A stretch of 64,000 nucleotides of DNA from the IMG/VR virus record IMGVR_UViG_3300027909_000017. One strand, 5' to 3'. Made by a program: the position numbers and the translations under genes. Numbering within the stretch: position 1 is the first letter of the stretch; each line of letters opens with the position of its first letter. The notes under the pieces were generated by a model. The model was not told where the DNA came from and searched no databases. It saw nothing but the letters and a program-made list of their open reading frames with translations. Of the stretch, positions 12,431-48,754 are shown in pieces. This stretch comes from a virus.

Positions 12431-12531
12431 GGTCTGTCGAATGCCTGAAAAAAGTCTGTTTCACGCAAACGATGGTCAGCCGAGCGTGGCCCCGGCTCGT
12501 GACCTGCTACGGGGCTCTTTTGGAGGAGCAC

Positions 12532-30910: not shown

Positions 30911-31234
30911 ATGGCCTTCCAAGCGGTCCTCGTCTACGACATGCTCACCGGTTATCAGAACAACGCCGCGTTGATGAACAAGGACCTCACGCCGCTAAGC
31001 GTGAGTTCCACTCTCGAAGCGCTGGGCTTCGACCGCGTGGGGGACATGACCGTCTCGACGAGCGGCCTGACCCTGCGCCGGACGATCACCGTGCGGACGA
31101 ATGCGGTCGGCGACCGGCTCTGGAACTCGGCTGATCAGGTGAAGGCGATCACGATGCGGCTGTTCCGGGGTGGCTTGGCCATGCTGCTGCCGAGTGTGGT
31201 GACGGCATCTGATCCAGTGGTTACAGAGGTTTGA
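30911..31234 (+). CDS. hypothetical protein
   Basis: AAGGAG RBS. Confidence 0.65.
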   Translation: MAFQAVLVYDMLTGYQNNAALMNKDLTPLSVSSTLEALGFDRVGDMTVSTSGLTLRRTITVRTNAVGDRLWNSADQVKAITMRLFRGGLAMLLPSVVTASDPVVTEV

Positions 31235-32889: not shown

Positions 32890-33786
32890 GTGCAACTCCA
32901 AGAGCTTGTCACCACGATCCGACCGCACCCGTGGGGCGAGGCCGGTGTCCGGAGCTCGCTGGATGAGGTTGCGCGCTACGTCTCGAAAGGCATCAGCAAC
33001 CCGTACGTCCGCACGTTCGCGATCGACAAACTAGCCGAGGCGCAGGCTCGCGGCATTAATGTCGACACGTCGCGCGGACGCGCCGAGGTGCTGCTCGAGG
33101 TGTTTCAGCGCGAGAAACTGTGGGTGCCGGACCCGGTCAATGCCGAGTACATGCCCGAGGCTCACCTCATCGCGTGCGACCCCAACAAGCCGCACGTGAC
33201 GCCCGAGGGCAAGACGCTCGTCTGCAAGAGGGGCGACGACTGCGACGGTAAGACGATCGGACTCGGCGCGTGCTTCGGCGCGGTCGGGTTGAACAGTGTG
33301 GTCGTCGGGCACGGTTACGACCCCGATGGTGGTCGCATCGAGCACGTGCTGACGATGGTCTGGCTCGGGAAGCGTTGGCACTACGCCGACCCGAGCTTGA
33401 AAGAACTGAAACTTGGCCAGTGCGTGCCGTTCACGCGCGAGCGCGTGCTGAGCGTGCCGAACGTGCAGGTGCTCTGCGACGCGAGCTCGTGCATGACCGG
33501 CCAGGAGACGCGCTTCAACCCCGACGACATGAACTTCGTCAACGAGGGGATATTCGTCGGCGTCGCCGGCGCGCCGAACTCGCTCGCGGGAGTGCGCTCG
33601 CCCATCGTCTGGGTGACGAACGAAAAGCCGATGGTGCAGTGGCTCGGTTCTATCGGCGAGACCGCGGCGCAAAACAACCAGACCGCGCAGCGCTTCACCA
33701 CACTGGAGAAGATCTTGCTCGCGGGAACTTTCATCAGCGCGACCACGCTCGCGCTCGAGCTCTACGACCGCACGAGGCAGCTATGA
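32890..33786 (+). CDS. transglutaminase-like cysteine protease with C-terminal TM
   Basis: Triad motifs GDDCDG, IEHVL, WHYADPS; tag IVWV..VQWLG before a hydrophobic C-terminus. Confidence 0.75.
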   Translation: MQLQELVTTIRPHPWGEAGVRSSLDEVARYVSKGISNPYVRTFAIDKLAEAQARGINVDTSRGRAEVLLEVFQREKLWVPDPVNAEYMPEAHLIACDPNKPHVTPEGKTLVCKRGDDCDGKTIGLGACFGAVGLNSVVVGHGYDPDGGRIEHVLTMVWLGKRWHYADPSLKELKLGQCVPFTRERVLSVPNVQVLCDASSCMTGQETRFNPDDMNFVNEGIFVGVAGAPNSLAGVRSPIVWVTNEKPMVQWLGSIGETAAQNNQTAQRFTTLEKILLAGTFISATTLALELYDRTRQL

Positions 33787-34724
33787 ATTGGGTAAATCCT
33801 ATCAAGATCCCGGCAGAATTGAAGCGTCTTGGTCTCGGTCAAGCAGCCGATCCGAATCTAGACGCTTGGGCACAGATGATCACCGCGCTTCGCGACAGCG
33901 TCCAACTTTCTTGGAACGCTGCGAAGGCTTCGTACCTGGGTCTGAAGAAGGTCCGCGAAGATCTCGGTCTGCCGTTCATCGCGGCGCCGAGCGGAGAAAC
34001 TGATGCGAATGTTGGAGCGTGGGGCGCCGACCTCGACCAACAAGCCGTCGACTTGCAGGCCATCAACACGATCCTGATCAACGCCGCTAACGACGTCCTC
34101 GAGAACAAGCGCAAACTCATCTGGGATCCGACTCTGAAAGAGTTTGTCATTGAGGCGTTGCCCGACGACGTCGTGCGCGTGGAGAACGTCGGCGGCAAAC
34201 CGACGCTGGTCCTGATCACGACCGGCGCCGCCACTCACAGCACCGGCACGATCGGTATCGCGCCGCTGGCGATCGGTGCTGGCGTCGCGGTCTTGGCCGT
34301 CGTCGCCGGCATCGGTCTCTACTCGTTGGTCAAGGACACGAACGCGACGATGCGCTCGCTCGCGGAGCAGAAGACGACGCAGACGCTCTCAAACAATCAA
34401 GTGAAGATGATCGAGAAGGGCGCTACGCCGGAGCAGGCGGCGCAAGCCACCAAAGCGGTCACCGACGGAGTCGCGTCGATTAAAGAAGCTGACGCGAAAC
34501 TCGAGCAAGCGAAGGCCGGAGGAAAAGACGTCGACGCTTGGACTAACTTGATCAAGACCGGCGGATTCATCGCGCTCGGTCTCGGCGTTCTCTACATCGT
34601 CGCGCAACTCGTACCGAAGGGCGGTGTGCGTAGCACAGCACCGGCGATGCCGATGCAAGAGAACCGTCGGCGTCGTCGGCGTCGGTCGAATCGGACCAGG
34701 ACTCGAGCCGCCTACGCGAGGTGA
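33783..34724 (+). CDS. tagged virion membrane protein (MNWV), two TMs, QEN-poly-Arg tail
   Basis: ATG 33783 coupled; TMs IAPLAIGAGVAVLAVVAGIGL and FIALGLGVLYIVAQLV. Confidence 0.75.
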   Translation: MNWVNPIKIPAELKRLGLGQAADPNLDAWAQMITALRDSVQLSWNAAKASYLGLKKVREDLGLPFIAAPSGETDANVGAWGADLDQQAVDLQAINTILINAANDVLENKRKLIWDPTLKEFVIEALPDDVVRVENVGGKPTLVLITTGAATHSTGTIGIAPLAIGAGVAVLAVVAGIGLYSLVKDTNATMRSLAEQKTTQTLSNNQVKMIEKGATPEQAAQATKAVTDGVASIKEADAKLEQAKAGGKDVDAWTNLIKTGGFIALGLGVLYIVAQLVPKGGVRSTAPAMPMQENRRRRRRRSNRTRTRAAYAR

Positions 34725-34730
34725 TGAGCC

Positions 34731-35276
34731 GTGGCACGTCCTCAGATCGCAAAAACCACCGTGTGCGACAGTCGCGAATGTCGCCGCGTAAACCTGCTCG
34801 TTCGTGGCACGCACATCGAGCTCGTTTCTGTCGAGCGAGTGCGCGAGGTCGGTTACCACAAACTCGACTACTATAAGATGCCGAGTGACGTGAAGTTTCC
34901 AGCGGAATATGTGCTGGTTCAGGACACTTCAGGCGAAGCGCTGCGACGCTGCGACTTCTACATCGTGCGCGCGAAGTCGAGTGGGTCGATCGTGGGCCAC
35001 GATACGAGTGACAAAGTTCTGCGTGATGCAGAAGAGTACTTTCGAAACGGACGACGCATGTCTTCGACGAATGTCGACATCCCAAACGGAGCGTGGCATC
35101 GTCTCGGGAAGGTACAGTTCATTCGGTATCGCCGCTGGGGACATGCGAAGGGTTTTTACGAGCACGAGTACTCACCGACCGTCGTCTTGCAACAGACGGC
35201 GAGCGGAGCGCGTGCGTGGCGACTCCCACTACCTGGTGGATGTCAAGTTGACAGTAGAGGTTTCGGTTGGCCATGA
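34731..35276 (+). CDS. hypothetical protein in the morphogenesis module
   Basis: ORF between membrane and core-like genes. Confidence 0.7.
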   Translation: MARPQIAKTTVCDSRECRRVNLLVRGTHIELVSVERVREVGYHKLDYYKMPSDVKFPAEYVLVQDTSGEALRRCDFYIVRAKSSGSIVGHDTSDKVLRDAEEYFRNGRRMSSTNVDIPNGAWHRLGKVQFIRYRRWGHAKGFYEHEYSPTVVLQQTASGARAWRLPLPGGCQVDSRGFGWP

Positions 35277-35277
35277 T
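35241..35277 (+). promoter_or_regulatory. promoter candidate for core/capsid genes
   Basis: Palindrome TGTCAA-G-TTGACA; TTGACA-N18-CATGAT. Confidence 0.45.
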
Positions 35278-37054
35278 GCCGCTGACCAAGTTGGCTGCGC
35301 GCGTGCAAGCGCGTTTGGATGAAGCGAATCTGGAGGAGAATCCGGTGGCACAAGCCGTCAAAGAGAATCGCCGTCGCAAGGGCAGCAAGAAACCGAGCGC
35401 TGCTCAGTTGCGTGCACGCGAGAAGTTCGCGCGCATGGCTCGGTCAGGAAAGTTCAAGCGCAAGCGTCGCAAGAAGGAACTCGCGCAGAATCGAAAGATG
35501 AGCAAACGGCGTAGCCGGCGCATGGAGGACAATCGCCGGAATCGCACCTACCAAGCAAACCGGGGACGCAAGTACGAGTCGAATCAGAGCGCCCCCGCGA
35601 AGTCACAACAGGAGAATGCATCCATGGCCGCCGAACTCGAAGAGAACGCAAGGAAGGGCAAGAAGAAGGGCAAGAAGCGCCGGAAGGGGCGTCGCAAGGG
35701 TCGTAAGACCAAGCGACGCGCCAAAGCCCGTTCTCGAAAAGGCGGACGTCGCAAGAGTCGTCGTGGCAAGCGCAGGGCCGTGCGTACGGTCAAGACCCAC
35801 GTCGTGTCTTTGCCGCGCAGCACCGTCGCCGTCACGGAGAAGAAGCGTCGTCGCCGCAAGAAGAAGGCCGGCAAGAAGAAGCGTCGTGGCGGAGGTCGTC
35901 GGAAACGCGCGCTGATGGAGAACCCGTCTGGATTCTTCAGCGGCCCGGGACCGATGGCTCTCTACGAGAACCAAGCCGGCCCGTTCACGATGGCCGGACT
36001 CCGCGCCTACGGCGTCGCCGCCGTCGGTGTCGGCCTCGGTTTGATCGTCGCCGACGTGACGGATCGCTTGATCGCGACCCGCACGCCGAAAGACGGTCGC
36101 AACCCGTGGTACGGCAAGGACGCGGCCGGAGCGATCCGGATGCGCCCCGATGCGTGGCGTCTCGGCGGACAGGCCGGTGGTGCGGTTGCCGGTATGGCGG
36201 TCGCCTACTGGGCGCGCGGTCGCGGCATCATCCCGTGGCTCGTCGGCGGCATCGCTGTCGGCTTCGGCGCGAACCTGGTCAAGCAACTCTGGGACTGGTA
36301 CCTCGCTCCGACTGTCATGAAGGTCGAGCTCGCGGACGCGGGCAAGCCCAGCATCGGCAATCGGCTCTACTCCCTGGAGCAGAATTACATCCAGGAGCAG
36401 GTCGCGAAACTCTTCGCGCAGCGTCCGTTCGTCGCGTCGCTCGCGCCGGGACAGAACGACCCGCCCCAGATCACGTCCCCGCTCGGCGGTGGCGGAACCG
36501 GCGCCGGTCCGATGTACCAGCTCTCGGGTCAGCCCGGAGTTGGTCGCCCCGGACAGAACGCGCGCTCGGTCATCCGCACCGGTCGCGTCGGCACGTGTCA
36601 GGAGTGCGGTTGCTCGGACGGTTGCTACAGCAACTGCCCGACGCTGTGCCCGGACTGCCCGGAGTACAACCAGAACACGATGTGCCGTCACCAGGTGCAA
36701 GCCGGCGACGACATCAACGCGTTCGCTTCGGCGGGTGGCGTGTCGGTCGAACAGATCCTCGCGCTCAACCCGAACACTCCGTGGACACCCGGCAGCGTCG
36801 TCTTCCTCCCTTACGGAGTTTGCTCCGCGATGGAGAAGGGCTCGTTCAACCCGGTGGTCGCTGAGCTCAATCCCGTCGCTCCTCCGAGCCCACTGCCCGT
36901 CCCGCTCACCGCGGAGACGATGGTGGAACCGCCGGGTGGTCCGGTCGCGCCTCCGGCTGCCTTCGCGGCTCCCGGCGTGTACGGCACACCCATGAACGGC
37001 GACGATCACATCAAGAAGGCGATGATCTTCTCGGGCGGTCTTCGCAGGGACTGA
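35267..37054 (+). CDS. Lys/Arg-rich membrane protein with Cys cluster and LysM domain (core-like)
   Basis: Basic N-third with repeated xEN motifs; central TMs; CQECGC...; HQVQAGDD...GVSVEQILALNP...PGSVVFLP at about 36686-36811. Confidence 0.75.
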   Translation: MAMMPLTKLAARVQARLDEANLEENPVAQAVKENRRRKGSKKPSAAQLRAREKFARMARSGKFKRKRRKKELAQNRKMSKRRSRRMEDNRRNRTYQANRGRKYESNQSAPAKSQQENASMAAELEENARKGKKKGKKRRKGRRKGRKTKRRAKARSRKGGRRKSRRGKRRAVRTVKTHVVSLPRSTVAVTEKKRRRRKKKAGKKKRRGGGRRKRALMENPSGFFSGPGPMALYENQAGPFTMAGLRAYGVAAVGVGLGLIVADVTDRLIATRTPKDGRNPWYGKDAAGAIRMRPDAWRLGGQAGGAVAGMAVAYWARGRGIIPWLVGGIAVGFGANLVKQLWDWYLAPTVMKVELADAGKPSIGNRLYSLEQNYIQEQVAKLFAQRPFVASLAPGQNDPPQITSPLGGGGTGAGPMYQLSGQPGVGRPGQNARSVIRTGRVGTCQECGCSDGCYSNCPTLCPDCPEYNQNTMCRHQVQAGDDINAFASAGGVSVEQILALNPNTPWTPGSVVFLPYGVCSAMEKGSFNPVVAELNPVAPPSPLPVPLTAETMVEPPGGPVAPPAAFAAPGVYGTPMNGDDHIKKAMIFSGGLRRD

Positions 37055-37140
37055 TCGAAGAGACGTCAACAAGAGTTCTGAGTTTTTGAACAAAGGGCCC
37101 GGGGCGGAAGAAGCCGTCTCGGGCAGGAGAAAGAAAGACA

Positions 37141-38355
37141 ATGGCCAATATCGACAATCGATCCGGTGCGTGGAAGAAGTGTGCCACCATCGGTGAAGCT
37201 GCTGCGGTGCCCTGGTCGGCGCTTACGGCAATCATCAGCGACCAGACGCAGATCAAACTTCCGATGACTCCCGAGGAGTTTCAGAAGTTCGAAGGCAACA
37301 TCAACTTCTTCGATGTCGATACCGAGGCCAATCCGTGCCCGGGACGGCAGATCACGGGAGCGTTTACCGGCGCTCGCGTCGAGACGCCGTTCCTCGCGCT
37401 CGGAGCCTTCTTGATCCTCATCGGCGAGGGCTACTCCAAGACGCTGCCCGGAGCGCTCATCTCGGAACCGGCTTCCGAGTCGAGTACCCCGTGCTTCGAC
37501 GGGTGCATTCCCGTTGGAGGTCTCGGTGCAGACGCAGCCGCGCGCAACGCGGCTCTGTACTGGGGTGGACCGACTCAGCTCTTCCTCGAATCGTTCAGCC
37601 AGGCGTACCGCTTCCAGGTGCGCATGGGTCGCCGCATCGTCGTGGTCGACGAGCTCGCCGACCACATCGGTGTGTGGCCCCGCGCGAAGGCGTTCTGCGG
37701 AGCGAGTGACTCACTCGCCCCGATGATGCCCGAGATTCAGGAAGTGAACTCGGTCCTCCACGACAAGGACTTCGACCGGCTCTTCATCCCGCAGAACGTC
37801 GTCGTGGGCGATGCGGGAACCGAGTGCATCGGCGCACCGACCGCTGGAGTGACCTACGGCCACTTCACGCAGTCGGGTATCGCGCACAAGGCGTACATGT
37901 TCCAGCGGCCGCTGCTCTACGTTCCGACGACCACCATCCGGATTGGTCTGACGCGCGTGGAACAAGACTGCTGCTTCCTCGACTCGATGCGGCGCCAAGC
38001 GGTGCTCGATCTCGGCGTCGTGCCGACGCCCGCACCTGGCATCCTCAGCGAGACCTTGGACTGCGGCGCCGGCTACTCGTCGGCGTACACCATCCCGGGT
38101 GGCTGCCTCACCTACGGCGTCGGACTCTTCGGCGTCGAGCTCTTCCCGAGCGCGTGCATCGATTACCTGAACTACATCCTCCCCGAGAGCTTGCAGTTTC
38201 AGATGCTGCTCGAGAACAGCTTCATGCAGGGTCTGCTCCAGGCCAACTCCCTCAAGGGCGCCGGCCAACAGATGCTCAACGGCCTCACGCCGCAGGGCAA
38301 GCAGAACCTCAAGGCGCTGCTCGAGCGCAAGCCGATGGCGATCCTGGACGAGTAA
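37141..38355 (+). CDS. putative major capsid protein, single jelly-roll type
   Basis: AGGAG RBS with flanking hairpins; strand pattern NFFD..PFLALG..YRFQVRMG..DE..IG..RPLLYVP..IRIGL..VGLFG like P23-77/SH1-type MCPs (by eye). Confidence 0.55.
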   Translation: MANIDNRSGAWKKCATIGEAAAVPWSALTAIISDQTQIKLPMTPEEFQKFEGNINFFDVDTEANPCPGRQITGAFTGARVETPFLALGAFLILIGEGYSKTLPGALISEPASESSTPCFDGCIPVGGLGADAAARNAALYWGGPTQLFLESFSQAYRFQVRMGRRIVVVDELADHIGVWPRAKAFCGASDSLAPMMPEIQEVNSVLHDKDFDRLFIPQNVVVGDAGTECIGAPTAGVTYGHFTQSGIAHKAYMFQRPLLYVPTTTIRIGLTRVEQDCCFLDSMRRQAVLDLGVVPTPAPGILSETLDCGAGYSSAYTIPGGCLTYGVGLFGVELFPSACIDYLNYILPESLQFQMLLENSFMQGLLQANSLKGAGQQMLNGLTPQGKQNLKALLERKPMAILDE

Positions 38356-38393
38356 TCGTCCAAGCGCTCGCGTCACACACTAGCAAAAAAGGC

Positions 38394-38421
38394 GCGGGCG
38401 CTCGGTCACTCGGGCGCCCGC
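38394..38421. terminator. GC-rich hairpin after the putative MCP gene
   Basis: GCGGGCGC/GCGCCCGC stem; A6 tract at 38385-38390. Confidence 0.55.
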
Positions 38422-38455
38422 TCCAGTATTCTATTCCGGAAAAAGTGGTGAACCG

Positions 38456-39124
38456 ATGATTGGAGGAAAAAGGGTCAGGGAACTCGGTGTCGGGGACATC
38501 CCGCTCATCGCCCAGTACGACCCGCGCCTCGCGGTTGCGCTGGCATACGGCGGAGCGTTCGCGCCGAAAGGCGTGATCCTCAACGGCATCGCGTCCGCCG
38601 TCGGTGGTTGGGAGATCTTGACGCTCCGAGCAACGTTTCAGAGCGGCACGGCCAACCAGACCATCCCGGTCACGCTGCCGGACGTGGCTGAGGTCGACAT
38701 GTGGGTGCGCGACATCCGCGCGACCGTGCGTCGACCGAACTACTTCCCCGGCAACCCGCTGCGCGATATCGCGAACACCGCGTACGCGCAAAACCCGGAC
38801 ATCGACTTCACGCTCGAGGTGAAGACGTGGTGCAACTTCGCCATCAGTCTCGACCCCGTGCCGCTCGGCTTGATCGCCGAAACGTTCGAGTGTGTTTGCC
38901 CGGTCGGCCTCGTGCTCACGTGCGGTGCGTCGATCATCGGCAGCTTCACGAACACGCGCGCGCTCGTCGACCCGGACGAGATCCCGACCGAGGTCACCGT
39001 CGCGTTGCACGTCACTCGTCTGCCGCGCACGAACTGCTACGCGCAGATCGACATCGCCACAGCACTCAGCGTGCTCAAAGAACAGAAGATCCTGCCCGAC
39101 ATCGATCCTGGTTGCTGCGGGTGA
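38456..39124 (+). CDS. putative second single jelly-roll capsid protein
   Basis: DMWVRDI..DFTLEV..SLDPVPLGLI..LVLTCGASIIGSFTN..EVTVALHVTRL. Confidence 0.55.
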   Translation: MIGGKRVRELGVGDIPLIAQYDPRLAVALAYGGAFAPKGVILNGIASAVGGWEILTLRATFQSGTANQTIPVTLPDVAEVDMWVRDIRATVRRPNYFPGNPLRDIANTAYAQNPDIDFTLEVKTWCNFAISLDPVPLGLIAETFECVCPVGLVLTCGASIIGSFTNTRALVDPDEIPTEVTVALHVTRLPRTNCYAQIDIATALSVLKEQKILPDIDPGCCG

Positions 39125-39135
39125 GGTGGTGATGG

Positions 39136-40086
39136 ATGGCGCAGAGTCGAGCAGATGCGAGGAAGCACGAGTCGGAGATCACGGTAGCGGCTGAGCTACT
39201 ATCCGAGACGCCCGAGCTCGCCCACCTCTCTCGAGACTACTGCGGTTGGCGCTCGCGCTGTCCCGTCGTCGTCGACATCGTCAGTTCCGCGTTCGACATC
39301 GACAACATCGGTCTCGGCAGCTCGCCGTACACCGGCGACATGAGCCGCACCGGCATCGCGGTACCTCTCGCGCCGACGGTCAACCAGCAGCACCGTTACC
39401 TGTTTCGTCTCGCGACCATGGAGGTGCCGAGCGGGGCGGCGGCGGTCATCCTCGGAGTCCACACCGCGCAGACGCTGCGCACCGTGCTCGAGGGGACCGA
39501 CGGTGAAGGCTCGAGCTGTTTTCGACCGCTCGAGATCTTGGTGCGCGAGCCGTTCTGGCAACCGCCGAACGGCAACATCTCGTGGCACTTGAGGCAGTGG
39601 CAGTTGCGCGAGCACCGTCGCTTGCTGACCGCCGGCCCGGCAGCGGCCGGCTTCGACATCCACGTGGACGGCAATGACACCGCGCTCATGTTCGCCGAAA
39701 CCGTGTCGTTCGCGCCGTACACCCCGCCGTTCTCCGGCATGCCTCCAGGGCGCGCGATCGGTGCACTCGGCACGTGGCGCGACAATCGCGACTGGGAGGT
39801 GCACATCCCCATCTTCGGTCCGAAGAAGATCGGCCTCTGGGCGTCAGTGCACCAGTTCGACTCGTTGCTCATCTGCCCGACAACCGCACCGACCGACCTC
39901 GGCGCCATCTCGCAAGAGGACCGCTTCCTGTACGCGTTCGGTTCGACCGGGACCGGCGTCCAATACGGTCGGGTGGCTGGCGCCATCACCGTGGAGCTCT
40001 GGCCGAATTGCAACGACCTGAGAGACCACCTGCGCGCCGGGGGTAAGCTTTTCCAACCGAGTTCAACAAGGAGATTGCAGCCGTGA
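39136..40086 (+). CDS. putative jelly-roll minor capsid/penton protein
   Basis: Beta-rich, no TM, third gene of the capsid-like trio. Confidence 0.4.
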   Translation: MAQSRADARKHESEITVAAELLSETPELAHLSRDYCGWRSRCPVVVDIVSSAFDIDNIGLGSSPYTGDMSRTGIAVPLAPTVNQQHRYLFRLATMEVPSGAAAVILGVHTAQTLRTVLEGTDGEGSSCFRPLEILVREPFWQPPNGNISWHLRQWQLREHRRLLTAGPAAAGFDIHVDGNDTALMFAETVSFAPYTPPFSGMPPGRAIGALGTWRDNRDWEVHIPIFGPKKIGLWASVHQFDSLLICPTTAPTDLGAISQEDRFLYAFGSTGTGVQYGRVAGAITVELWPNCNDLRDHLRAGGKLFQPSSTRRLQP

Positions 40087-41153
40087 GCAAAGTCAATTGG
40101 ACGGGACGCATCAGTCCGGACAACCGCCGCGGCTCTGTGGGAGCTCCCCCGCCCGTGTTCTGGTGGTACTTCAAGGTCTACGCGAAGTACGGAGGCGAGG
40201 TCGTGCACTCGGAGGGCCCGAGCGGCATGACCGGAGCTCAGGGCAACGCGCGCATCTTGATGCTCGGTCAGCAGTACGGGACCGAGTACGTGGTGTGCGG
40301 CACGTACCTCGGCGGCTACGGCGGCAAGAGCACGTACTGCACTTACGACGGTGGCGTCACGACCAAGTACGGTGAGCCGCCGGCTTTCCCGCCGGTGCCG
40401 ACGTCGCCTCCGGTGCCGATCATCCCGCTCTTCTTCAACACGCCTCGCGTCCCGTATCGACCGTTTTTCGGTCCCGCTACCCTCAATCCATTCACGCCGA
40501 TCTTTCCCGGCTACCGCACCCGCGTCTCGTGGGTCGCGCCGTCGCCGCGTCCGTTCTTCGTGTTCGGAGCGCGCAGGGTCGAGTGGCTCGGCAGCCGCCT
40601 CGGTCAGAACGCTTGCAACGACCTGAACAACGCGGTCGCGAGCGCGAAGGCTTCGAGGAACGGGTTGCAGCAGAACTTGAGCGCGGTGAACAACGCGTAC
40701 AACCAAGCGGTGCAAGCCGGTAATCAAGAGGCCATCGCGGATCTCTACGCGACCAAGCTCGGAATCCAGGCCGACCTCGCGAAGCTCGACGCCGACATCG
40801 TCGCGCTCGAGGCTCAGGCGAAGGCCGCGTGCGCGCCGCCCCCGCCGTCGACCGGCTGCACGTCGGACGCTGACTGCGGTCCTGCTGGCTTCAAGTGCGT
40901 CGACGGGAACTGCGTTCCGTGGGACTGCTTCAAGGACTCGGACTGCGGAGCCGGTCTGAAGTGCGACGGCAAGGGCAAGTGCATCCCCGCGACCACGACC
41001 GCGAGCGTCGGCGGTGGTGGGATCTGGCTGCTCGCCGCCGCGGCGGCTGCCGCGATCTTCTTCGCGATTAAACCACCGAAGCTCCCGAAGACTGCCGCCG
41101 GTCGGTTGCAAGAGAACCGTCGGCGTCGACGTCGACAGGCGGCCGCCGCTTGA
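40083..41153 (+). CDS. doubly tagged membrane protein with Cys-rich repeats and QEN-poly-Arg tail
   Basis: KVNWT at N-terminus, RVSWV..RRVEWLG internally, coiled coil, two CxxDxDC repeats, TM. Confidence 0.8.
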   Translation: MSKVNWTGRISPDNRRGSVGAPPPVFWWYFKVYAKYGGEVVHSEGPSGMTGAQGNARILMLGQQYGTEYVVCGTYLGGYGGKSTYCTYDGGVTTKYGEPPAFPPVPTSPPVPIIPLFFNTPRVPYRPFFGPATLNPFTPIFPGYRTRVSWVAPSPRPFFVFGARRVEWLGSRLGQNACNDLNNAVASAKASRNGLQQNLSAVNNAYNQAVQAGNQEAIADLYATKLGIQADLAKLDADIVALEAQAKAACAPPPPSTGCTSDADCGPAGFKCVDGNCVPWDCFKDSDCGAGLKCDGKGKCIPATTTASVGGGGIWLLAAAAAAAIFFAIKPPKLPKTAAGRLQENRRRRRRQAAAA

Positions 41154-41168
41154 GCGGGAGGAGGCTAA

Positions 41169-41546
41169 GTGCGGGTCACTTGGGTCAAAACAAACCGGCG
41201 AGTCGAATGGCTCGGTAAGATTCCGAGCGGGCGCGTCGGTCTGACCGACCAGGAGCGCGTCAACGAGGCGCGGTCGTACTTCCCTGGGTGCTACTCGAAG
41301 GCATTCGATGATTGCATCGATAAAGGCTTGGTGACCGCCTACCCGAATTGTGCGCGAATCCTCGAGCTCTGGGGCAACGACAAGACGGCACCCGTCTCAC
41401 TCCAACTCGACGCCGTGATCGATCAGATGCCGTATTGTTCCGCGCCGAGCACGGCAACGTCGTCGAGCGACAACACGGTGATCTGGGTCGTCGGCGCGGT
41501 GGCGCTCGCCGCCGTCGCTGGTTACGCGCTCGCGGGAGGTTTCTGA
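41169..41546 (+). CDS. tagged tail-anchored Cys-containing protein
   Basis: MRVTWVKTNRRVEWLG...C-terminal TM. Confidence 0.8.
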   Translation: MRVTWVKTNRRVEWLGKIPSGRVGLTDQERVNEARSYFPGCYSKAFDDCIDKGLVTAYPNCARILELWGNDKTAPVSLQLDAVIDQMPYCSAPSTATSSSDNTVIWVVGAVALAAVAGYALAGGF

Positions 41547-41758
41547 TGAGGGTCAACTGGGTCGGAACCAGTCGCGAACTCGAGTTTCACCGCGCGCAGC
41601 GAACGATGCTCAGCGGACCACGTCGTCTCGGTGTCAGTGCCGGCGGCGTCTCGGTCGCGACATCCGGCATCATCGCGCCGCTCGTCGTGGTCGGCATCTT
41701 GGCGCTCGCCATCTACGGCGGCGTGAAGGCGATCGGGAAACTACCAGAGGGGCGTTGA
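41546..41758 (+). CDS. tagged small membrane protein
   Basis: MRVNWVGTSRELEF; ATG overlaps TGA; TM. Confidence 0.75.
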   Translation: MRVNWVGTSRELEFHRAQRTMLSGPRRLGVSAGGVSVATSGIIAPLVVVGILALAIYGGVKAIGKLPEGR

Positions 41759-41761
41759 TGC

Positions 41762-42034
41762 ATGCGCGTCGACTGGGTGCAGAGTCGACGCCGCGTGGAG
41801 TGGCTGGGCGCGCTCCCGTCAGGCGAGAGTGCGGAAGCTCTCGTCGGCGGCGACTTAACAGCGTTGCCCGTCGTGACGTTTCATACCGGCTTGCGTGCTG
41901 GACTCATCGGTCTCGGTCTGTACGTGGCAGGTTTTCGAGGCGAACAACTCGTGAAGGGTGCGATCGCCGGTGCGGTCGGCATCGAGGCGTTCGTGCTAGC
42001 GTGGGCTCTATACGAACGAGGTAAGAAAAAATGA
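41762..42034 (+). CDS. tagged small two-TM protein
   Basis: MRVDWVQSRRRVEWLG. Confidence 0.8.
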   Translation: MRVDWVQSRRRVEWLGALPSGESAEALVGGDLTALPVVTFHTGLRAGLIGLGLYVAGFRGEQLVKGAIAGAVGIEAFVLAWALYERGKKK

Positions 42035-42783
42035 ACGCCGTCAATTGGGTAAACGCACGAGGACAAACTTCGGCGGTTGGTCCGAAAGGTCGCAAGGCGC
42101 GTCGCGTGCAGTGGCTAGGTGCGCCCGCGTTCGGCGTCGGCGCGCTCGACGTCGCCTCGAACGGGTTCGCGAAGGGGCTGCTCGCGTCGTGGAACGCGAC
42201 TGACGGCGCGAACTGGATCAATCAGTACGGCTTGCAGCCGGGTGACGTCGACCCGAACGCCTGGTACGACCGAGACGGCTACGTCCTCGCCGGCTTCGTC
42301 AAGTGGTGGAACGGCACGAACGCGCAGAAGCTTCCCGAGCCGGGGACGAAGAACGGCGTCGCTTGGGTCGACCTGACGCAGCAGCACTTGACCACGCTCC
42401 AGAATTGGGCGCTGTCGAAGGGTATCATCAACCCGGGTCAGCTCCCGGCTTCGCCGCAGCCGACTCCTGTGCCGATGGACATGTCGACGTGCCTGGCCAA
42501 TTGCCAGAACACGTACGGGCTCGATCCGATCTCGCTCGCGACGTGCGCCGCTGCGTGCGCTCAGTCGTTCCCTCTCACTCCTCCACCGGTGCCGATCTCA
42601 CCGACACCGACGACGCCGGCGCCGACTACCCCGCCCTCCACTCCTCCGCCTACCATCCCGACGGCGCCCGTCACGCCGGGCACCACGACGACCAGCGAGA
42701 GCAAGACGAACGTCTGGCCCTGGGTGATCGGTGGCACTGCTTTGGTGGCACTCGGTGCGTTGGTTCTTTCTGGAGGGAAGTGA
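42031..42783 (+). CDS. tagged tail-anchored protein with Pro/Thr linker
   Basis: AVNWV...RRVQWLG; paralogous domain in next gene. Confidence 0.8.
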   Translation: MNAVNWVNARGQTSAVGPKGRKARRVQWLGAPAFGVGALDVASNGFAKGLLASWNATDGANWINQYGLQPGDVDPNAWYDRDGYVLAGFVKWWNGTNAQKLPEPGTKNGVAWVDLTQQHLTTLQNWALSKGIINPGQLPASPQPTPVPMDMSTCLANCQNTYGLDPISLATCAAACAQSFPLTPPPVPISPTPTTPAPTTPPSTPPPTIPTAPVTPGTTTTSESKTNVWPWVIGGTALVALGALVLSGGK

Positions 42784-42786
42784 GCC

Positions 42787-43926
42787 ATGCGCGTCGAATG
42801 GGTACAGAGGCGTCGAGTCCAGTGGGTGCGTGAGACACGCGCTCAGCTCGGTGTTGGTCTGATCGGCATTCTTGAATGGGAAGACCCCGTCGAGAAGAAC
42901 CCGTCCGGCGCGCAGCTTCACGCCAAGAACATTCTCTGGCTGTGGGGAAAGGCGAATCCGACGTACAGCCCGATCGCCGGCTACGGGACTGCGGCCGACC
43001 TCACGAGCAATTGGATGGATCGCGATCGTCAGATGATGTCCGCGTTCTGCAACTGGTGGAACATCACGCACCCGAGCCAGGCGATCCCCATCTCGCAAAA
43101 CGTCACGAACGCGAACATCAAGGCGCTCGACCAGTGGGTCAAGGAAGAGAACGCCAAAGCGTCGCAGGCTCAACCGATCACACCCGGGCAATTCCCTCCG
43201 GGTAGTGGACAGCCGCAACCGCAGCTCACTTTTCCTCTGCTCACTCTCACGCCGCTCGGCTGGCCTCCCGGCGTGCCGTACCCACCGCCGAAACCTTCCT
43301 GGTGGCCCGACGGGCTCAATTACCCACCGGTCGGCGACTCGTGGGCGCCCGTTCCTCCTGGTTGGTGGAATCTCTCGCCGAACCCGCTGCCGTGGCCGCC
43401 GCCGAAACCTGACGGCTGGCCCACGTTCCCGTACCCGCTCCCGCCCACGGCGCTCGCGTCGGTCATGTCGTGCGATCAGGTGTGCGACGCTCAGTTCGGA
43501 ACCAAGGGCACGACTCCGAACCAGACCGCGCTCGACGTCTGCAAGAAGGGTTGCTCGACGGCTGCGACTCCGCCTCCGCTGACGTTCCCGATCGGTCCGC
43601 AGAATCTTCGCCCGCTCCCACCCGACACGGGGACGGCTCCGAGCACGGGGACGACGTCCACGCCGAAGTCGAGCGTCGTGCCGATCGTGCTCGGTCTTGC
43701 AGCGCTCGGCGGCGTCGCGTGGTTGTTGATGCGCGGCAGCGGCACGACCTTGCTCGAGAACCCGCAGTTCAGCTTTCTCGGCTGGACGTTCGGTGCCCAC
43801 AAAACGGGCAGGGGCAAGGTCAAACCGCCGAAGATGAAGCTCACGAAGAAGGGTAAGAAGGAATTCGCCGCGGAATGGAAGCGCGTGTTTCCCACACTAC
43901 CCGTCCCGGATATTGACGAGCCATGA
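42787..43926 (+). CDS. tagged protein with Pro/Trp repeats, TM and LEN-basic tail
   Basis: MRVEWVQRRRVQWV; LLENPQ after TM. Confidence 0.8.
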   Translation: MRVEWVQRRRVQWVRETRAQLGVGLIGILEWEDPVEKNPSGAQLHAKNILWLWGKANPTYSPIAGYGTAADLTSNWMDRDRQMMSAFCNWWNITHPSQAIPISQNVTNANIKALDQWVKEENAKASQAQPITPGQFPPGSGQPQPQLTFPLLTLTPLGWPPGVPYPPPKPSWWPDGLNYPPVGDSWAPVPPGWWNLSPNPLPWPPPKPDGWPTFPYPLPPTALASVMSCDQVCDAQFGTKGTTPNQTALDVCKKGCSTAATPPPLTFPIGPQNLRPLPPDTGTAPSTGTTSTPKSSVVPIVLGLAALGGVAWLLMRGSGTTLLENPQFSFLGWTFGAHKTGRGKVKPPKMKLTKKGKKEFAAEWKRVFPTLPVPDIDEP

Positions 43927-44387
43927 AAGTTGATTGGGTCCGTCCGATGCAGAATGCCTCGCGCTTCGGCGCGCTGGGGCAAGCTGCGACTCCACCGGCG
44001 CCGCCGGGGTGGACGGGTCCGTGGCCGCCTCCGAAACCCCCGTTCTGGGACCTCACCGGGCTGCCCTGGCTGCCCACGGCCCTCCCTGCGCAGCGACCGC
44101 CCTTGTACCCGCCCACGCTGCCCTGGCCGCCTCCGCCGCCCCCGTACTGGCCCGCGGGGTGGGACTGGCCGCCGCAGCCGCCGGCGAGCTGGACGACTCC
44201 GCCTCCGGTGCCTGCCTCGACCCCCGTAACACCCCCCTCCGGCGGCGCGGGGCCGGCACCGACTTCTTCTGTCTCGAGCTCGGGCGGCGACAGCGTCGCT
44301 TACGTGATCGGTGGCGTGCTGGTCCTCGGACTGTTCGCACTTGTCGCGCTCGGCGGCATGGCGTCGCAGGAGGAAGATGCGGCGTGA
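43923..44387 (+). CDS. tagged Pro/Trp-rich tail-anchored protein
   Basis: MKVDWV...GALGQ; WPPPKP repeats; TM. Confidence 0.8.
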   Translation: MKVDWVRPMQNASRFGALGQAATPPAPPGWTGPWPPPKPPFWDLTGLPWLPTALPAQRPPLYPPTLPWPPPPPPYWPAGWDWPPQPPASWTTPPPVPASTPVTPPSGGAGPAPTSSVSSSGGDSVAYVIGGVLVLGLFALVALGGMASQEEDAA

Positions 44388-45097
44388 CTCACCCGCTGGA
44401 CCTCTTCATGCCCGTCGGCGCCGTCGCGATGCCGAGCGCTTGGTTCGATTCCGGATGCGGTGGACCGCGTGCGCGGTGGACCGCTGAAGGTCTGATCGAG
44501 GTCGAGGGCGAGGGTGCGAAGTCGCGTGCACTGCCCGCGGACGTGAAGAAGTGGCGTGACCTGATCATTACCAAGTCGACCAAGTACGGCGTGCCGGCAC
44601 AGTTCACGACCGGCATCATGGGTCTCGAGAGCAGCGGAGATCAGAACGCGAAGTCGCCCGCGAACGCGTGTGGGCTGATGCAGCTCATCCCGTCGACCGC
44701 GTCTGACCAAGCCGGCCGCCCCGTCACGTGCGCGGAGCTCTTGAGCGACGCCGACCTCAACGTTGATCTCGGCACGAAGTTCTTGGCCGAGCTCCTGACG
44801 AAGTACGGCAACAACCCGATCAAGGTCGCGGCCGCCTACAACGCCGGCTCGGCGAAGTGTGGGATGAGCAGCAAGTGCACCTCACCGAATCGATGGAACT
44901 TGCTCACCGACTGCGGTCAGAGCGGCGCGTCCGCTGATTATCCCGGTATCGTGTTCGGCTACACGAACGCGGCCGCAGCGTGGCTCGGCGCCAATCCAAC
45001 GGTGAGCCCGTCTTCGTCAGGACCGAGTCTCGGCGCGCTCGTGCTCGGTACCGCGGCCGCAGGCGGTCTGCTCTGGGCATGGGGAGCATTTAAATGA
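44384..45097 (+). CDS. tail-anchored lytic transglycosylase (SLT family)
   Basis: IMGLESSG, ACGLMQLIPSTA, NVDLGTKFL, AAYNAG; C-terminal TM; GTG coupled. Confidence 0.85.
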   Translation: MTHPLDLFMPVGAVAMPSAWFDSGCGGPRARWTAEGLIEVEGEGAKSRALPADVKKWRDLIITKSTKYGVPAQFTTGIMGLESSGDQNAKSPANACGLMQLIPSTASDQAGRPVTCAELLSDADLNVDLGTKFLAELLTKYGNNPIKVAAAYNAGSAKCGMSSKCTSPNRWNLLTDCGQSGASADYPGIVFGYTNAAAAWLGANPTVSPSSSGPSLGALVLGTAAAGGLLWAWGAFK

Positions 45098-46131
45098 ACC
45101 GCGTCAATTGGTGCGTTCCTATCCGGCGTCTCGAGTTTCTCGGCGCGTACACGGGCTACGACAAGATCAAGGACAACGCGCTCGCCAAGGAGATCATCGG
45201 GCGACGCGGCGCTGTCGACGAGGAGTCGCTCAAGGCGTACGGCAAAGTCGGCGGCACGATCGCGGGTGCGGGACTCTGCGCGGCGACTGGCGTAGGCGCA
45301 ACGGTTGCGGTCGGGTGCGGCATCATCGGCGGCATCATCGGCGAGTGGATCGCGAGCAAGATCCCCGTCGCGCACGGTTCGACGATGGAAGACCTCGTCG
45401 GCGACACGATCAACAACTTCATCAAGCCGAAGGCGAAGCTCTCCGCCAACGGCATGTACGCGGTGCGTGCCTACCTCACGATGCGCGACCTCGCGATCAC
45501 GAAGGGCCTCGCGACTGACGCTTCGTTGACCGCGGCCGGTATTCCTCCGGCACCGGTTGACCCGCGCTGGGCGCCGAACGCGCAGCGGTACTCGCGAGCG
45601 AAGAGCAACTACTCGGACGTGCTCGTCCAGCTCGCGCAGTCATCTGCGTGGCAGAAAGAGTGCAAGGCCGCGAAGAACATCAAGGCCGTGAATTCCAAGT
45701 TCTCGTGCCAGGACTACCTCTATGCCGTCTACTACGAGGGATACATCGGCCCGGTCGCGGCGCCGGGCGAACCGATCGACTGGTACGCGGTCGGGCGCGA
45801 CGAGATCGCGTTCTATTGGAAGGTGCTCAAGTACAAGAAGGACTGCGAGGCGTGGATTCGCGGGCCTCAGTTCATCGGCACGAAGCTCGACCCGAACTTG
45901 ACGTGCCCGATGAATGCGCCGAGTACGCTGGCGAAGATCTACCTCGACAAGCTGAACGCGACGGTGAAGTGGCCCGCTAAGGGCAGCCCGCTACTGCCCG
46001 ACGTCCTCGACATCTCTCAACACATCTTTGGTTCGTCCGGTACCACCAGTACTCCGTCGAAGACAAGTCCGGTGCTCGTGGTCGGAGGACTCGCCGCCGC
46101 TGCTGCGGCGGTGTGGTACTTCTTCCTGTGA
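45094..46131 (+). CDS. tagged membrane protein with glycine-zipper segment
   Basis: RVNWC..RRLEFLG; GGTIAGAGLCAATGVG..GIIGGIIG; C-terminal TM. Confidence 0.8.
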   Translation: MNRVNWCVPIRRLEFLGAYTGYDKIKDNALAKEIIGRRGAVDEESLKAYGKVGGTIAGAGLCAATGVGATVAVGCGIIGGIIGEWIASKIPVAHGSTMEDLVGDTINNFIKPKAKLSANGMYAVRAYLTMRDLAITKGLATDASLTAAGIPPAPVDPRWAPNAQRYSRAKSNYSDVLVQLAQSSAWQKECKAAKNIKAVNSKFSCQDYLYAVYYEGYIGPVAAPGEPIDWYAVGRDEIAFYWKVLKYKKDCEAWIRGPQFIGTKLDPNLTCPMNAPSTLAKIYLDKLNATVKWPAKGSPLLPDVLDISQHIFGSSGTTSTPSKTSPVLVVGGLAAAAAAVWYFFL

Positions 46132-46718
46132 GGGTGAACTGGGTCGGAGCCGTCAACGGCCCGACGGTCTTGATCGGAGACTCGCTCGCGGTCGGGCTCG
46201 CGCAACCGCTCAAGGCGGAGTTCGGCGCCGAGCCGTTTCAAGCGTTCGCGAAGGGCGGAACGGCGGTCTCGCAGTGGCTCAACGGCTCGCAGGCGGGCGA
46301 GCTCGCGAAGGCCCTCGAGCTCGGCCCGAAGCGCGTGCTCGTCTCGCTCGGCACGAACGACACGAACTCGAAGGTGCCCGCGGACCAGCTCAAGCAGCAG
46401 GTCGCCGCTCTCGTGCAGAAGATTCGCGACGTCGGCGCCGAACCGGTGTGGCTCAGCCCGGGAAAACTGCCGTGGCCGTATCCGGACTTGATCGCGGCCG
46501 TCGCGTTCTCGAACGCGCGCGTGGTCATGCAGCCGGACGTCAAGAAGTTCGACGGCATTCACCCGACCGGCGACGGCTACAAGGAGTGGGCGAAGGCGAT
46601 CTATCAGGACTTGAACCCGTCGGCGACGATGGGCACGAGCTCGTCGACGACGAAGACGATCACCAACTTCGCGGTGCTCACCGGTCTCGCGTTGCTCACG
46701 TGGTGGGTGCTGTCGTGA
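46128..46718 (+). CDS. tagged tail-anchored SGNH/GDSL hydrolase
   Basis: MRVNWV; LIGDSLAVG, GTND, DGIHPT; TM. Confidence 0.85.
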   Translation: MRVNWVGAVNGPTVLIGDSLAVGLAQPLKAEFGAEPFQAFAKGGTAVSQWLNGSQAGELAKALELGPKRVLVSLGTNDTNSKVPADQLKQQVAALVQKIRDVGAEPVWLSPGKLPWPYPDLIAAVAFSNARVVMQPDVKKFDGIHPTGDGYKEWAKAIYQDLNPSATMGTSSSTTKTITNFAVLTGLALLTWWVLS

Positions 46719-47566
46719 AAGTCGATTGGGTGCAGACGAAGCGTGCTCACCAGCGCGTGGAGTGGCTCGGTCAGACCGTCGAGCTCTTCCAACCCACGAC
46801 GACGCTCGAGGACATCGTGCCGGAGCAGCGGCCCAAGTTCGAGGCGCTCATCGCGTACGCGAAGTCATTCGGCATGACGATCAAAGTGCGCTCGGCGGGC
46901 CGCACGTGCGCGACGCAGCAGTCGTACTACGACCTCGGCGAGCAGATCACGCAAGCGAACTTGTGCCGTTCCATGCACGTGTTCGGTCACGCCGTGGACT
47001 TCGACCTCGTGCCCAACACCTGCCTCTCGTACACGAAGCTTGGCGAGTGGTGGGAGAAGCAGGGCGGCGTCTGGGGCGGCCGCTGGAAGCAGTTCGGCCC
47101 GTGCGGGGACATGGGACACTTCCACATCGGGATGAACGGCGCGCAGGCCGTGCCGACGTCGCTGTGCCCGGCAAACGTCACCGAGTCCGAGTGCAAGAAG
47201 ATCCGCGAAGACTACCTCACCAAGGCGTTTGGTCAGGCGACGCCGACAACCTCGACGAGCTCGCGCATGGGCATCCTGTCAGGACTCTTGATCGCGGGCG
47301 CTGCCGCGGCACTCCTCTACGCGACGTTGAATGTACGGGCGCCGGTCCGCGTGCGCGAGAACCGAGCGAGGACTGTTGAGCAAGCGTACAAAGATCTACT
47401 TGAAAAATTCGACGAAGAGATGGCTCTCGCGCAAGAAGCGGAAGATCAAGGTCTCTACGAACGAGCCGACGTACACTCCCGAGCGGCCGACGCCGCGGAC
47501 CGACGAGCCGCCAAACTCTCGCAAGAAGTGATCGACGGCAAACGCCGTTGGGAAGATCCGTACTGA
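46715..47566 (+). CDS. tagged M15-family (L-Ala-D-Glu-type) peptidase with TM and REN tail
   Basis: MKVDWV..RVEWLGQ; RTCATQ, SMHVFGHAVD, WGGRW, DMGHF. Confidence 0.85.
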   Translation: MKVDWVQTKRAHQRVEWLGQTVELFQPTTTLEDIVPEQRPKFEALIAYAKSFGMTIKVRSAGRTCATQQSYYDLGEQITQANLCRSMHVFGHAVDFDLVPNTCLSYTKLGEWWEKQGGVWGGRWKQFGPCGDMGHFHIGMNGAQAVPTSLCPANVTESECKKIREDYLTKAFGQATPTTSTSSRMGILSGLLIAGAAAALLYATLNVRAPVRVRENRARTVEQAYKDLLEKFDEEMALAQEAEDQGLYERADVHSRAADAADRRAAKLSQEVIDGKRRWEDPY

Positions 47567-48500: not shown

Positions 48501-48754
48501 ATCAACATCCGACAGACATGTTCATCGGGCAGCTCGTTTACCCGAACACTTTTTGGCGAGACAAGTGGGTCTGGTACACGAACGCTTGGAGCCACGCAGG
48601 TGGAGACTACGATTACGGTCCCGGTGCCTATCCACCGTGCGACGACAAGGGGATCAGCTCGTGCACGAGCGGGCCTCCGTACGTTGCGGAACACATCTGG
48701 CGGCTCGACGGACCCGGTCTCTGGACCGATCTCGGTTGGGAATACAATTATTGA
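48497..48754 (+). CDS. small Trp/Tyr-rich protein
   Basis: Coupled on both sides. Confidence 0.6.
   Translation: MNQHPTDMFIGQLVYPNTFWRDKWVWYTNAWSHAGGDYDYGPGAYPPCDDKGISSCTSGPPYVAEHIWRLDGPGLWTDLGWEYNY

Follow-up and report, generated by a model that had tools for sequence, protein, structure and literature searches.

The structural genes in a 64,000-nucleotide stretch of viral DNA (IMG/VR record IMGVR_UViG_3300027909_000017; hereafter the window, numbered along one strand from 5' to 3') encode proteins with a recurring short word, a hydrophobic residue, any residue, Glu and Asn followed by Pro, Arg or a few other residues, which is found shortly past C-terminal membrane anchors. This Glu-Asn word after the anchors marks the attachment points of interchangeable pieces, here called cargo, and, as judged from sequence, the proteins are most likely cut there. 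A preliminary description of the window had proposed that Glu-Asn followed by a basic tract is a cleavage site that releases protamine-like peptides on the DNA side of an internal membrane, as in the processing of adenovirus pVII and mu. Comparison with eight related loci supports the motif as a genuine signal under selection, placed at the border of membrane anchors and C-terminal pieces; it is conserved in distant relatives, where it coincides with the boundaries of protein modules. Cleavage is the best single explanation for such exact junctions, albeit as a proposal from sequence. The core of the proposed signal was misread, since the conserved part is Asn followed by Pro, with Glu often replaced, and most cargos in the relatives are non-basic domains.

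Enrichment and conservation of the motif

Within the structural module, the bare dipeptide EN was only mildly enriched (17 observed against 9.6 expected, p ~0.02). The longer word [LMVIF]xEN[PRKAQ] occurred 11 times, compared with 0.8 expected from whole-protein shuffles and 0.9 from shuffles of 15-residue blocks, and 0 of 400 shuffles reached 11; the other 55 proteins of the window contain it once, for 1.7-1.9 expected. No enrichment was seen for the control words NE, DN, phi-x-DN, phi-x-NE and phi-x-ED, and the NP dipeptide was not significantly enriched in the window (24 against 18.2). The signal in the window is a word of four to five residues. In six distant loci the same word occurred 28 times (4.2-4.3 expected), ENP 27 times (3.8 expected) and NP 153 times (84.8 expected, z = 8.4). 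The enrichment anticipated for EN before Lys/Arg tracts was thus found in part: EN is mildly and the longer word strongly enriched, but the core is not EN before a basic tract.

The loci compared were seven syntenic loci (L001-L007) and the IMG/VR contig L008, all eight of which bear the same signal. The capsid-like protein encoded at 37141 in the window has 30 homologues in metagenomes; its identity is 88% in L004 and 34-40% in L001, L002, L003, L005, L006 and L007. A first scan of viral contigs with this protein and a scan of genome contigs with an alignment of the 34731 protein (proteins are named here by the first position of their genes) gave no further relatives, and a tblastn search of deposited phage genomes with the capsid-like protein gave no match.

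With the Asn numbered as P1, 112 non-redundant sites have Ala or Arg at P5, Leu at P4 (45%), Leu, Ala or Phe at P3 and Glu at P2 (46%, 51/112). Pro stands at P1' in 78% (87/112), a figure that is partly due to construction as the sites were gathered as N-P or E-N-[RKAQ]; the remainder have Arg, Gln, Ala or Lys there, and Arg, Lys or Gly are frequent at P2'-P4'. Across the family, what stays constant is an Asn that mostly precedes Pro and has Leu or Met at P4. Glu at P2 is a trait of the window's lineage; the relatives may have S, Q, A, L, G or D in its place, examples being LALN↓P, MLSN↓P, LFQN↓P, FRGN↓P and LQAN↓A (the arrow marks the proposed cut). The consensus is A/R, L/M, L/x, E/x, N and then P or R, and the flanks are linkers rich in Pro, Gly and Ala that are otherwise unconserved.

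Position of the motif and the cargo that follows it

The motif occurs in three settings. In the first, it lies 8-25 residues past C-terminal membrane anchors: among predicted post-anchor tails of at least 15 residues, 25/35 have it within about 32 residues, compared with 11.8% of random windows (binomial 3e-16), and the ten exceptions are mostly hydrophobic strands of globular proteins miscalled as anchors. In the second, it punctuates the basic N-region of the 35267 protein family. In the third, found in relatives, it closes N-terminal tags of 8-10 residues on small soluble proteins, e.g., M-S-W-Q-R-L-F-E-N↓P and M-N-W-S-A-V-F-L-S-N↓P.

The tail sites cited in the preliminary description all translate as claimed (MQEN before RRRRRRR at 34653, LQEN before RRRRRR at 41106, LLEN before P at 43750 and VREN before RAR at 47351), and each of the four lies 9-16 residues past a predicted C-terminal membrane segment. 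The basic tract said to follow them is fully present in two of the four tails. Beyond LLEN↓P, a Lys-rich stretch begins about 15 residues further on, and the tail at 47351 is net acidic after RAR (12 K+R versus 17 D+E). A fifth basic tail behind a membrane anchor, at the C-terminus of the 48751-49587 protein, is an exception to the position rule: a hydrophobic segment leads into a basic tail that ends with five Arg, without EN or NP.

Two carrier families illustrate the rule. In the 33783 family (36 proteins), tails of more than 22 residues without exception have, 15-25 residues beyond the anchor, a hydrophobic-x-x-N with P, R or Q next to it; in five homologues the tail is only 13 residues long and stops about where the motif would fall. 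In the M15 peptidase-like family (51 proteins), the motif, as N↓P or EN, is found within about 17 residues of the anchor in 19 of the 20 tails of at least 15 residues, the twentieth having LQAN↓H; a further 26 homologues with tails of 0-12 residues end short of it. Since these cargo-less variants keep the linker and drop the Asn, the Asn appears to serve the cargo and not the carrier.

The 42 cargos collected after the Asn fall into 22 mutually dissimilar clusters, of which 7 belong to the 33783-type carrier and 15 to the M15 carrier. A Pfam search with 25 of them named almost none (DUF5661 once and a weak GNAT match) and recognised no toxin or immunity domain. Arg-rich tails on the 33783 carrier are confined to the window's lineage, and homologues have unrelated cargos in that place. 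In the window, L004, L001, L002 and L006, by contrast, the gene right after the capsid trio (40083 in the window) retains a short tail rich in Lys and Arg beyond the motif; the junction in these syntenic genes reads LQEN↓R or LLEN↓R in L004, L002 and L006 and LQAN↓A in L001. A resemblance of two cargos containing Y-H-G-T/S to ADP-ribosyltransferases was considered and set aside.

A 200-residue cargo that follows A-R-D-N↓P in three proteins (P0051, P0055 and P0058) is a separate gene in L006, L002 and L001, with 50-58% identity over the full length (E 1e-65 to 1e-77). In the stand-alone proteins of L006 and L002, homology to the cargo begins at residue 9, which is the Pro after the tag M-W-Q-R-L-F-S-N, and a tagged L002 protein has an L003 orthologue with no tag. 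Similarly, the L007 and L008 orthologues of the 34731 protein have a Cys-rich N-terminal extension that ends with N↓P directly before the conserved domain. As cargo homology begins at that Pro and the tags and extensions end there, the Asn/Pro bond is a boundary between modules; to judge from these alignments, the 'mature' module begins with Pro regardless of its fusion partner.

The two Arg-rich junctions of the window share an exact 22-mer at 34654 and 41107 (Table 1), as had been reported, and neither strand has a further copy. The window has just two exact direct repeats of at least 22 nt, this one and a 27-nt tandem at 14464-14517. Given the common peptide and the codon usage of the genome, the chance of identical codons is ~0.005-0.008. 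The copying of tail modules that was read from this repeat is only weakly supported: the codon estimate favours it, but L004, the closest relative, does not share the identity. The case for local copying or conversion at a conserved junction is weak; such an event is possible, though, and would fit an exchange of cargo.

A second signal, ending in W-L-G, is present in all the related loci. In the window it takes the form V-x-W-V ... V-E-W-L-G, at 33604-33648, at 40524-40595 and at the N-terminus of some ten proteins encoded between 41169 and 46770; the relatives have M-I-T-W-L-G, F-A-W-L-G and H-L-G-Q. Besides its N-terminal occurrences, it is internal in the 32890 and 40083 proteins.

Repeated sites in the basic region of the 35267 protein

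The preliminary description had also listed EN sites in the 35267-37054 protein, and six were confirmed (LEEN↓P, VKEN↓R, QQEN↓A, LEEN↓A, LMEN↓P and LYEN↓Q; Table 1). The eight orthologues all have a region equivalent to the basic N-region of the window's protein, 210-280 residues long and about one third K+R, and all nine proteins have sites in it, six in the window and nine or ten N-P in L005. Three or four of the site positions are conserved, with divergent basic stretches in between.

A cut behind every EN of this protein would give two very basic polypeptides, residues 35-117 (83 residues, net +27) and 128-219 (92 residues, net +49), together with a membrane/LysM-like part of 360 residues and short spacers of neutral or acidic character. 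The tails freed from the other carriers of the window would comprise 19 residues (11 K/R), 11 residues (6 R), a Lys-rich piece of 54 residues and an acidic one of 67. The basic products are plausible candidates for neutralising the charge of the packaged genome, or for condensing it.

Processing junction or uncleaved signal

We propose that the motif is a maturation or processing junction, cut by a trans-acting protease, across the virion module of this virus family, a proposal to which we give an even chance. The carriers, which are membrane-anchored virion proteins or, in relatives, short N-terminal tags, would bring the fused piece into the assembling particle. A trans-acting endopeptidase would then cut at or beside the invariant Asn, likeliest between the Asn and the following Pro or Arg, and so free the piece from its anchor. 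A processing junction is favoured because a recognition of four or five residues, the usual length for a protease, sits in unconserved linkers, because sites are repeated in a basic polyprotein, because the cargo-free variants lack the Asn, and because the junction coincides exactly with the module boundary. From these patterns we infer the cutting itself, the bond, the action of a protease rather than self-cleavage, the identity of that protease and the side of the membrane on which it would work.

Several points weigh against this proposal. The motif word was defined after the window had been viewed, which leaves the relatives as the sole independent test, and orthologous sites in them are not independent events. 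No cleavage products have been observed, and Pfam and PHROGs revealed no canonical protease family in the window. Pro at P1' is disfavoured by most endopeptidases. If all N-termini were cytoplasmic, the two-pass 33783 protein and the single-pass carriers would place their motifs on opposite sides of the membrane, which would make a single protease awkward. Finally, the data would fit equally a hinge or docking signal that is never cut, and helix capping is a classic role both of Asn and of the Gly in the W-L-G tags.

An uncleaved signal of this kind is the main rival, and we regard it as rather less likely than processing. A hydrophobic turn, capped by Asn and broken by Pro, would dock to an assembly partner (the capsid lattice, a scaffold or a membrane factor) or space the anchor from a cargo that stays attached. 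All the positional and modular evidence fits such a signal as well as it fits processing, and no protease has been identified. In the predicted structure of the capsid-like protein, the word at 38206 closes one helix right before the next; this alignment column is hydrophobic-x-G/x-N in about 20 of 28 homologues, with the word hydrophobic-hydrophobic-x-(G/E)-N, and could be a further processing site or merely a helix cap. In addition, paralogous genes of L001 have W-L-G and N↓P tags in place of one another at their N-termini (e.g., V-F-S-W-F-G↓P beside V-F-L-S-N↓P), and both Gly and Asn are known to prefer the helix C-cap. A recognisable part of four to five residues amid Pro/Gly/Ala-rich linkers is nevertheless rather short to form a docking helix, the sites that dice the basic region have no evident docking role, and the cargo-less variants, which retain the linker and lose the Asn, also speak against docking.

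Self-cleavage by asparagine cyclisation, the chemistry of the asparagine peptide lyases, would dispense with a dedicated protease and might be triggered by the particle. It suits the invariant Asn, the predominance of Pro as the next residue (87/112) and a window in which no protease gene was recognised; three known self-cleaving systems also break their chains at Asn↓Pro, and Asn-dependent self-cleavage recurs in the maturation of non-enveloped virus capsids (PMC3207474, PMC10328401). We still consider it improbable. The known cases need a conserved folded domain, whereas the flanks here are non-homologous, disordered-looking, or limited to 8-10 residues from an N-terminus. The NPTH signature of the FlhB family is missing, and more than ten unrelated contexts would each need a catalytic environment.

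Much the same sites could be read, within basic regions, as N-P-(K/R)-(K/R) DNA-binding turns akin to the S/T-P-K-K of histone H1 and sperm histones, the post-anchor sites being coincidental or unrelated. The runs R-R-R-N-P-A-R and K-K-N-P-R-R-K of L005 have this appearance, and Asx-Pro turns are known to be able to mimic Ser/Thr-Pro turns. We give this little credence, as it leaves unexplained the non-basic cargo, the tags on soluble proteins, the Leu and Glu favoured at P4 and P2, respectively, and the exact module boundary. Least credible of all is a co-translational break like the 'StopGo' of picornavirus 2A (D-V/I-E-x-N-P-G-P), by which carrier and cargo would be made separately: L-E-E-N-P and L-L-E-N-P-G bear a superficial likeness to D-V-E-E-N-P-G-P and the cargo starts with Pro, but N-P-G-P is missing (Gly is at P2' in 11/112 sites and Pro is outside the six commonest residues at P3'), Arg, Ala or Gln stand for Pro in this lineage, and 2A is not known to act on bacterial ribosomes.

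Candidate proteases

If the motif is a processing junction, the enzyme encoded at 32890 is the candidate put forward in the preliminary description. Its C118, H152 and D167 are invariant in five orthologues and follow the papain-like order of the triad. The Atlas model of the protein is similar to viral clusters with PF01841 in only a minority of their members, 18-44% (TM-score 0.60 by query and 0.79 by match; feature score 0.93), and there was no Pfam match and no sequence match in the PDB. This resemblance and the triad suggest a transglutaminase-core Cys-His-Asp enzyme, but nothing ties it to the motif over the W-L-G tags or an attack on the cell wall; since the protein bears a W-L-G tag itself, it could equally serve those tags. 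Complex prediction with its residues 1-240 and residues 203-246 of the 35267 protein, which include two sites, scored 0.00, giving no answer and counting neither for nor against the pairing.

The L002 orthologue of this enzyme (L002:5229-6515) contains a mini-intein of ~135 residues exactly at the catalytic Cys. The insertion starts with C-F-P-S-W-T, has a T-x-x-H block and ends with V-T-V-S-N before the C-D of the enzyme; Pfam Hint matches to it are weak (E 0.02-0.04). That an intein is placed exactly there argues that the Cys is critical.

The 34731-35276 protein (181 residues) was also considered. It is the most conserved protein of the module, with 44-49% identity to distant relatives and a core of residues 55-181, and a set of 1.8 billion representative proteins contains 265 relatives; neither Pfam nor PHROGs has a family for it. 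We rejected it as a hidden protease: its beta-barrel model (predicted local distance difference test, pLDDT, 81) has no convincing match (best PDB Z 3.7; TM-score at most 0.34 in Foldseek searches of PDB, BFVD and Atlas), and its matches to picornavirus 3C and trypsin-like proteins are few and far below significance. A retropepsin-like aspartyl protease gene of L001 (L001:2731-3075, PF13975, E 3.5e-8), which sits in the structural module and starts with M-W-L-G, was rejected as a common cutter, as neither the window nor any other locus has a counterpart.

Side of the membrane

The suggestion that the basic pieces are released on the DNA side of an internal membrane is unsupported. The positive-inside rule would keep Arg-rich tails and the basic N-region cytoplasmic during insertion, and in PRD1-like budding of a membrane patch into the cytoplasm, the cytoplasmic face looks to the capsid and not to the DNA. 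Such tails would therefore face the capsid in an assembly of the PRD1 type. Cys-rich clusters in the 40083-41153 and 35267-37054 proteins lie on the opposite side of the anchor from the basic parts, as does the LysM-like end of the 35267 protein, and the location of these parts suggests that theirs is the extracytoplasmic side.

Relation to known systems

In adenoviruses, a viral cysteine protease cuts pVII, pX/mu and other proteins at (M/I/L)-x-G-x↓G or (M/I/L)-x-G-G↓x. The likeness lies in a short consensus with a hydrophobic P4 that is shared by several virion proteins, in very basic, DNA-condensing products if the proteins are cut, and in a jelly-roll capsid-like protein. In contrast to adenovirus, P1 here is Asn rather than Gly, P2 is Glu in 51/112 sites, the substrates are membrane-anchored and the host is bacterial. 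No adenain/Ulp1-like protease was matched by Pfam or PHROGs among the ~60 proteins of the window, which takes in 64 kb of a contig at least 92 kb long. The analogy with pVII and mu, drawn in the preliminary description, is reasonable in the sense of working alike, given the two very basic polypeptides and the two Arg-rich tails; it does not extend to the relatives, where most cargos are non-basic.

The prohead protease gp21 of phage T4 cuts capsid-targeting sequences and internal proteins at L/I-x-E↓. There, too, cargo is sent into the particle by short tags at N-termini and by internal sites, which are afterwards cut away, and the word of the window can be read as L-x-E↓N. However, Glu is variable and Asn constant among the relatives, the capsid-like protein is a jelly roll rather than of the HK97 fold, and the prohead protease family was not detected.

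The tripartite C-terminal signals of sortases, exosortases and rhombosortases similarly combine a motif, a membrane helix and a basic cluster. Here, in contrast, the order is helix, motif and tail, the motif stands 8-25 residues past the helix, the tail is often a whole domain, and a sortase-like gene was not found.

Among asparagine peptide lyases, reovirus mu1, FlhB/YscU (N↓PTH) and RsgI cleave Asn↓Pro, the same junction dipeptide; RsgI and FlhB also cut beside a membrane anchor, and the viral cases free membrane-active or genome-associated peptides (PMC3207474, PMC10328401). Their junctions lie within one conserved autocatalytic fold, whereas the present motif is portable among unrelated, apparently unstructured contexts.

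Polymorphic toxins, with the PT-VENN junction of CdiA, and phage MuF-fused cargos share with the present proteins a constant carrier, a short conserved junction and a diversity of cargo, here 22 unrelated clusters; the V-E-N-N of CdiA even resembles hydrophobic-x-E-N. Transglutaminase/papain-fold domains in polymorphic toxins have been described as toxin domains or catalytically inactive forms, and not as releasing peptidases (PMC3482391). The carriers here differ in being virion membrane proteins rather than secreted filaments, the junction comes after a membrane anchor, and the Pfam search of the cargos recognised neither toxin nor immunity domains. Taken together, the present system works like adenovirus core processing and T4 targeting sequences, is built like polymorphic carrier-junction-cargo proteins, and is a member of none of these.

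More tentatively, and with rather less than even confidence, we suggest a general 'carrier - Asn↓Pro - cargo' delivery system in this lineage of large (75-112 kb), tailless, membrane-protein-rich jelly-roll viruses, in which interchangeable domains and protamine-like peptides would be ferried and then released by a protease of new specificity (P1 Asn, P1' Pro). We know of no described proteolytic maturation or histone-like core proteins in the bacterial jelly-roll membrane viruses (PRD1, PM2, P23-77). A family-wide processing signal would give such viruses both, and bring them nearer to adenoviruses and large eukaryotic DNA viruses. If true, it would be, as far as we know, the first maturation proteolysis in prokaryotic jelly-roll viruses, and a viral counterpart of the modularity of polymorphic toxins. 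The rule that what follows the Asn is cargo offers a way to read dozens of opaque genes, with at least 22 unknown domains that are probably carried into the next host. A cutter, if it exists, would have an unusual specificity for Asn before Pro and might be a useful tool.

Viral setting and other features of the window

The window has a G+C content of ~64%, and almost all of its genes lie on the + strand. Its own proteins are also found on a public contig of ~92 kb, so that the genome is at least 92 kb; contigs of this virus family reach 75-112 kb. The upstream half encodes a family A polymerase, helicases, a PD-(D/E)XK nuclease, a dCTP deaminase, a NUDIX protein and a small AAA ATPase. From 31231 to ~49600 follows a block of genes with hardly any matches in databases, which includes numerous proteins with C-terminal membrane segments and the wall-attacking domains SLT, GDSL and M15.

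The hallmarks of tailed phages (terminase, portal and tail families) were not found in the window. The 37141 protein (404 residues) is modelled as a beta-sandwich (pLDDT 75). Its best structural matches are weak (Z 5-6.7) and include the jelly-roll capsid proteins of SPV1, HCIV-1 and HHIV-2, PRD1 P3 and P23-77 VP17; unrelated beta-sandwich proteins score level with them. From the lack of tailed-phage hallmarks, the proteins with membrane segments and the jelly-roll-like capsid model, we infer that the setting is consistent with a large tailless bacterial virus with an internal membrane.

Table 1. Coordinates of the junction motifs, anchors, cargos and associated features in the window
Feature	Coordinates	Strand	Basis or remark
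Probable transglutaminase-core Cys-His-Asp enzyme (candidate protease)	32890..33786	+	C118 at 33241, H152 at 33343, D167 at 33388; internal W-L-G tag; C-terminal hydrophobic segment
N-terminal M-N-W-V-N-P, 33783 protein	33783..33800	+	Resembles relatives' N-terminal tags ending N↓P
Second membrane segment (anchor), 33783 protein	34548..34616	+	Hydropathy scan
Junction motif M-Q-E-N, 33783-34724 protein	34653..34664	+	N294 = proposed P1; 16 residues past second membrane segment; position kept in 31/36 homologues
22-mer, copy 1	34654..34675	+	
Arg-rich cargo tail, 33783 protein	34665..34724	+	19 residues, 11 K/R, plus stop codon
Basic N-region, 35267-37054 protein	35267..36061	+	265 residues, 89 K+R; upstream of first membrane segment
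Site L-E-E-N↓P	35330..35341	+	Position kept in L004
Site V-K-E-N↓R	35357..35368	+	
Site Q-Q-E-N↓A	35606..35617	+	Sole window site without hydrophobic P4
Site L-E-E-N↓A after acidic spacer	35636..35647	+	Equivalents EEEEMLLEN↓A in L001, AMELEEN↓P in L002 and L006
Site L-M-E-N↓P	35912..35923	+	L-L/M-E-N↓P in 6/7 other orthologues; L003 R-R-R-N↓P; L005 other N↓P sites
Site L-Y-E-N↓Q	35960..35971	+	Orthologues LFEN↓P or LFEN↓Q
C-terminal membrane anchor, 40083 protein	41004..41078	+	Hydropathy scan
Junction motif L-Q-E-N, 40083-41153 protein	41106..41117	+	Translation; syntenic genes alike
22-mer, copy 2	41107..41128	+	
Arg-rich tail, 40083 protein	41118..41153	+	11 residues, 6 Arg, plus stop codon
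Membrane anchor, 42787 protein	43669..43734	+	Hydropathy scan
Junction motif L-L-E-N then Pro, 42787-43926 protein	43750..43761	+	Translation
Cargo of 42787 protein	43762..43926	+	54 residues, begins with Pro, Lys-rich middle
Membrane anchor, M15 peptidase-like protein	47267..47329	+	Hydropathy scan
Junction motif V-R-E-N, M15 peptidase-like protein 46721-47566	47351..47362	+	Translation
Cargo of M15 peptidase-like protein	47363..47566	+	67 residues, net acidic, not protamine-like
Possible further site V-N-E-N↓P, 532-residue protein 31231-32829	31537..31548	+	
Possible further site L-L-E-N↓S, jelly-roll capsid-like protein	38206..38217	+	~45 residues from C-terminus; in the model, a break between two predicted helices

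One homologue of the 33783-34724 protein (P0055) is labelled at NCBI as coming from a Polyangiaceae metagenome bin, and this single bin label hints at hosts among the Myxococcota. Elsewhere in the window, positions 12313-12822 encode a GroES-like co-chaperonin (Cpn10, E 2e-26) with an N-terminal extension of ~75 residues, and the 27-nt tandem at 14464-14517 is an exact duplication within the PD-(D/E)XK nuclease gene.

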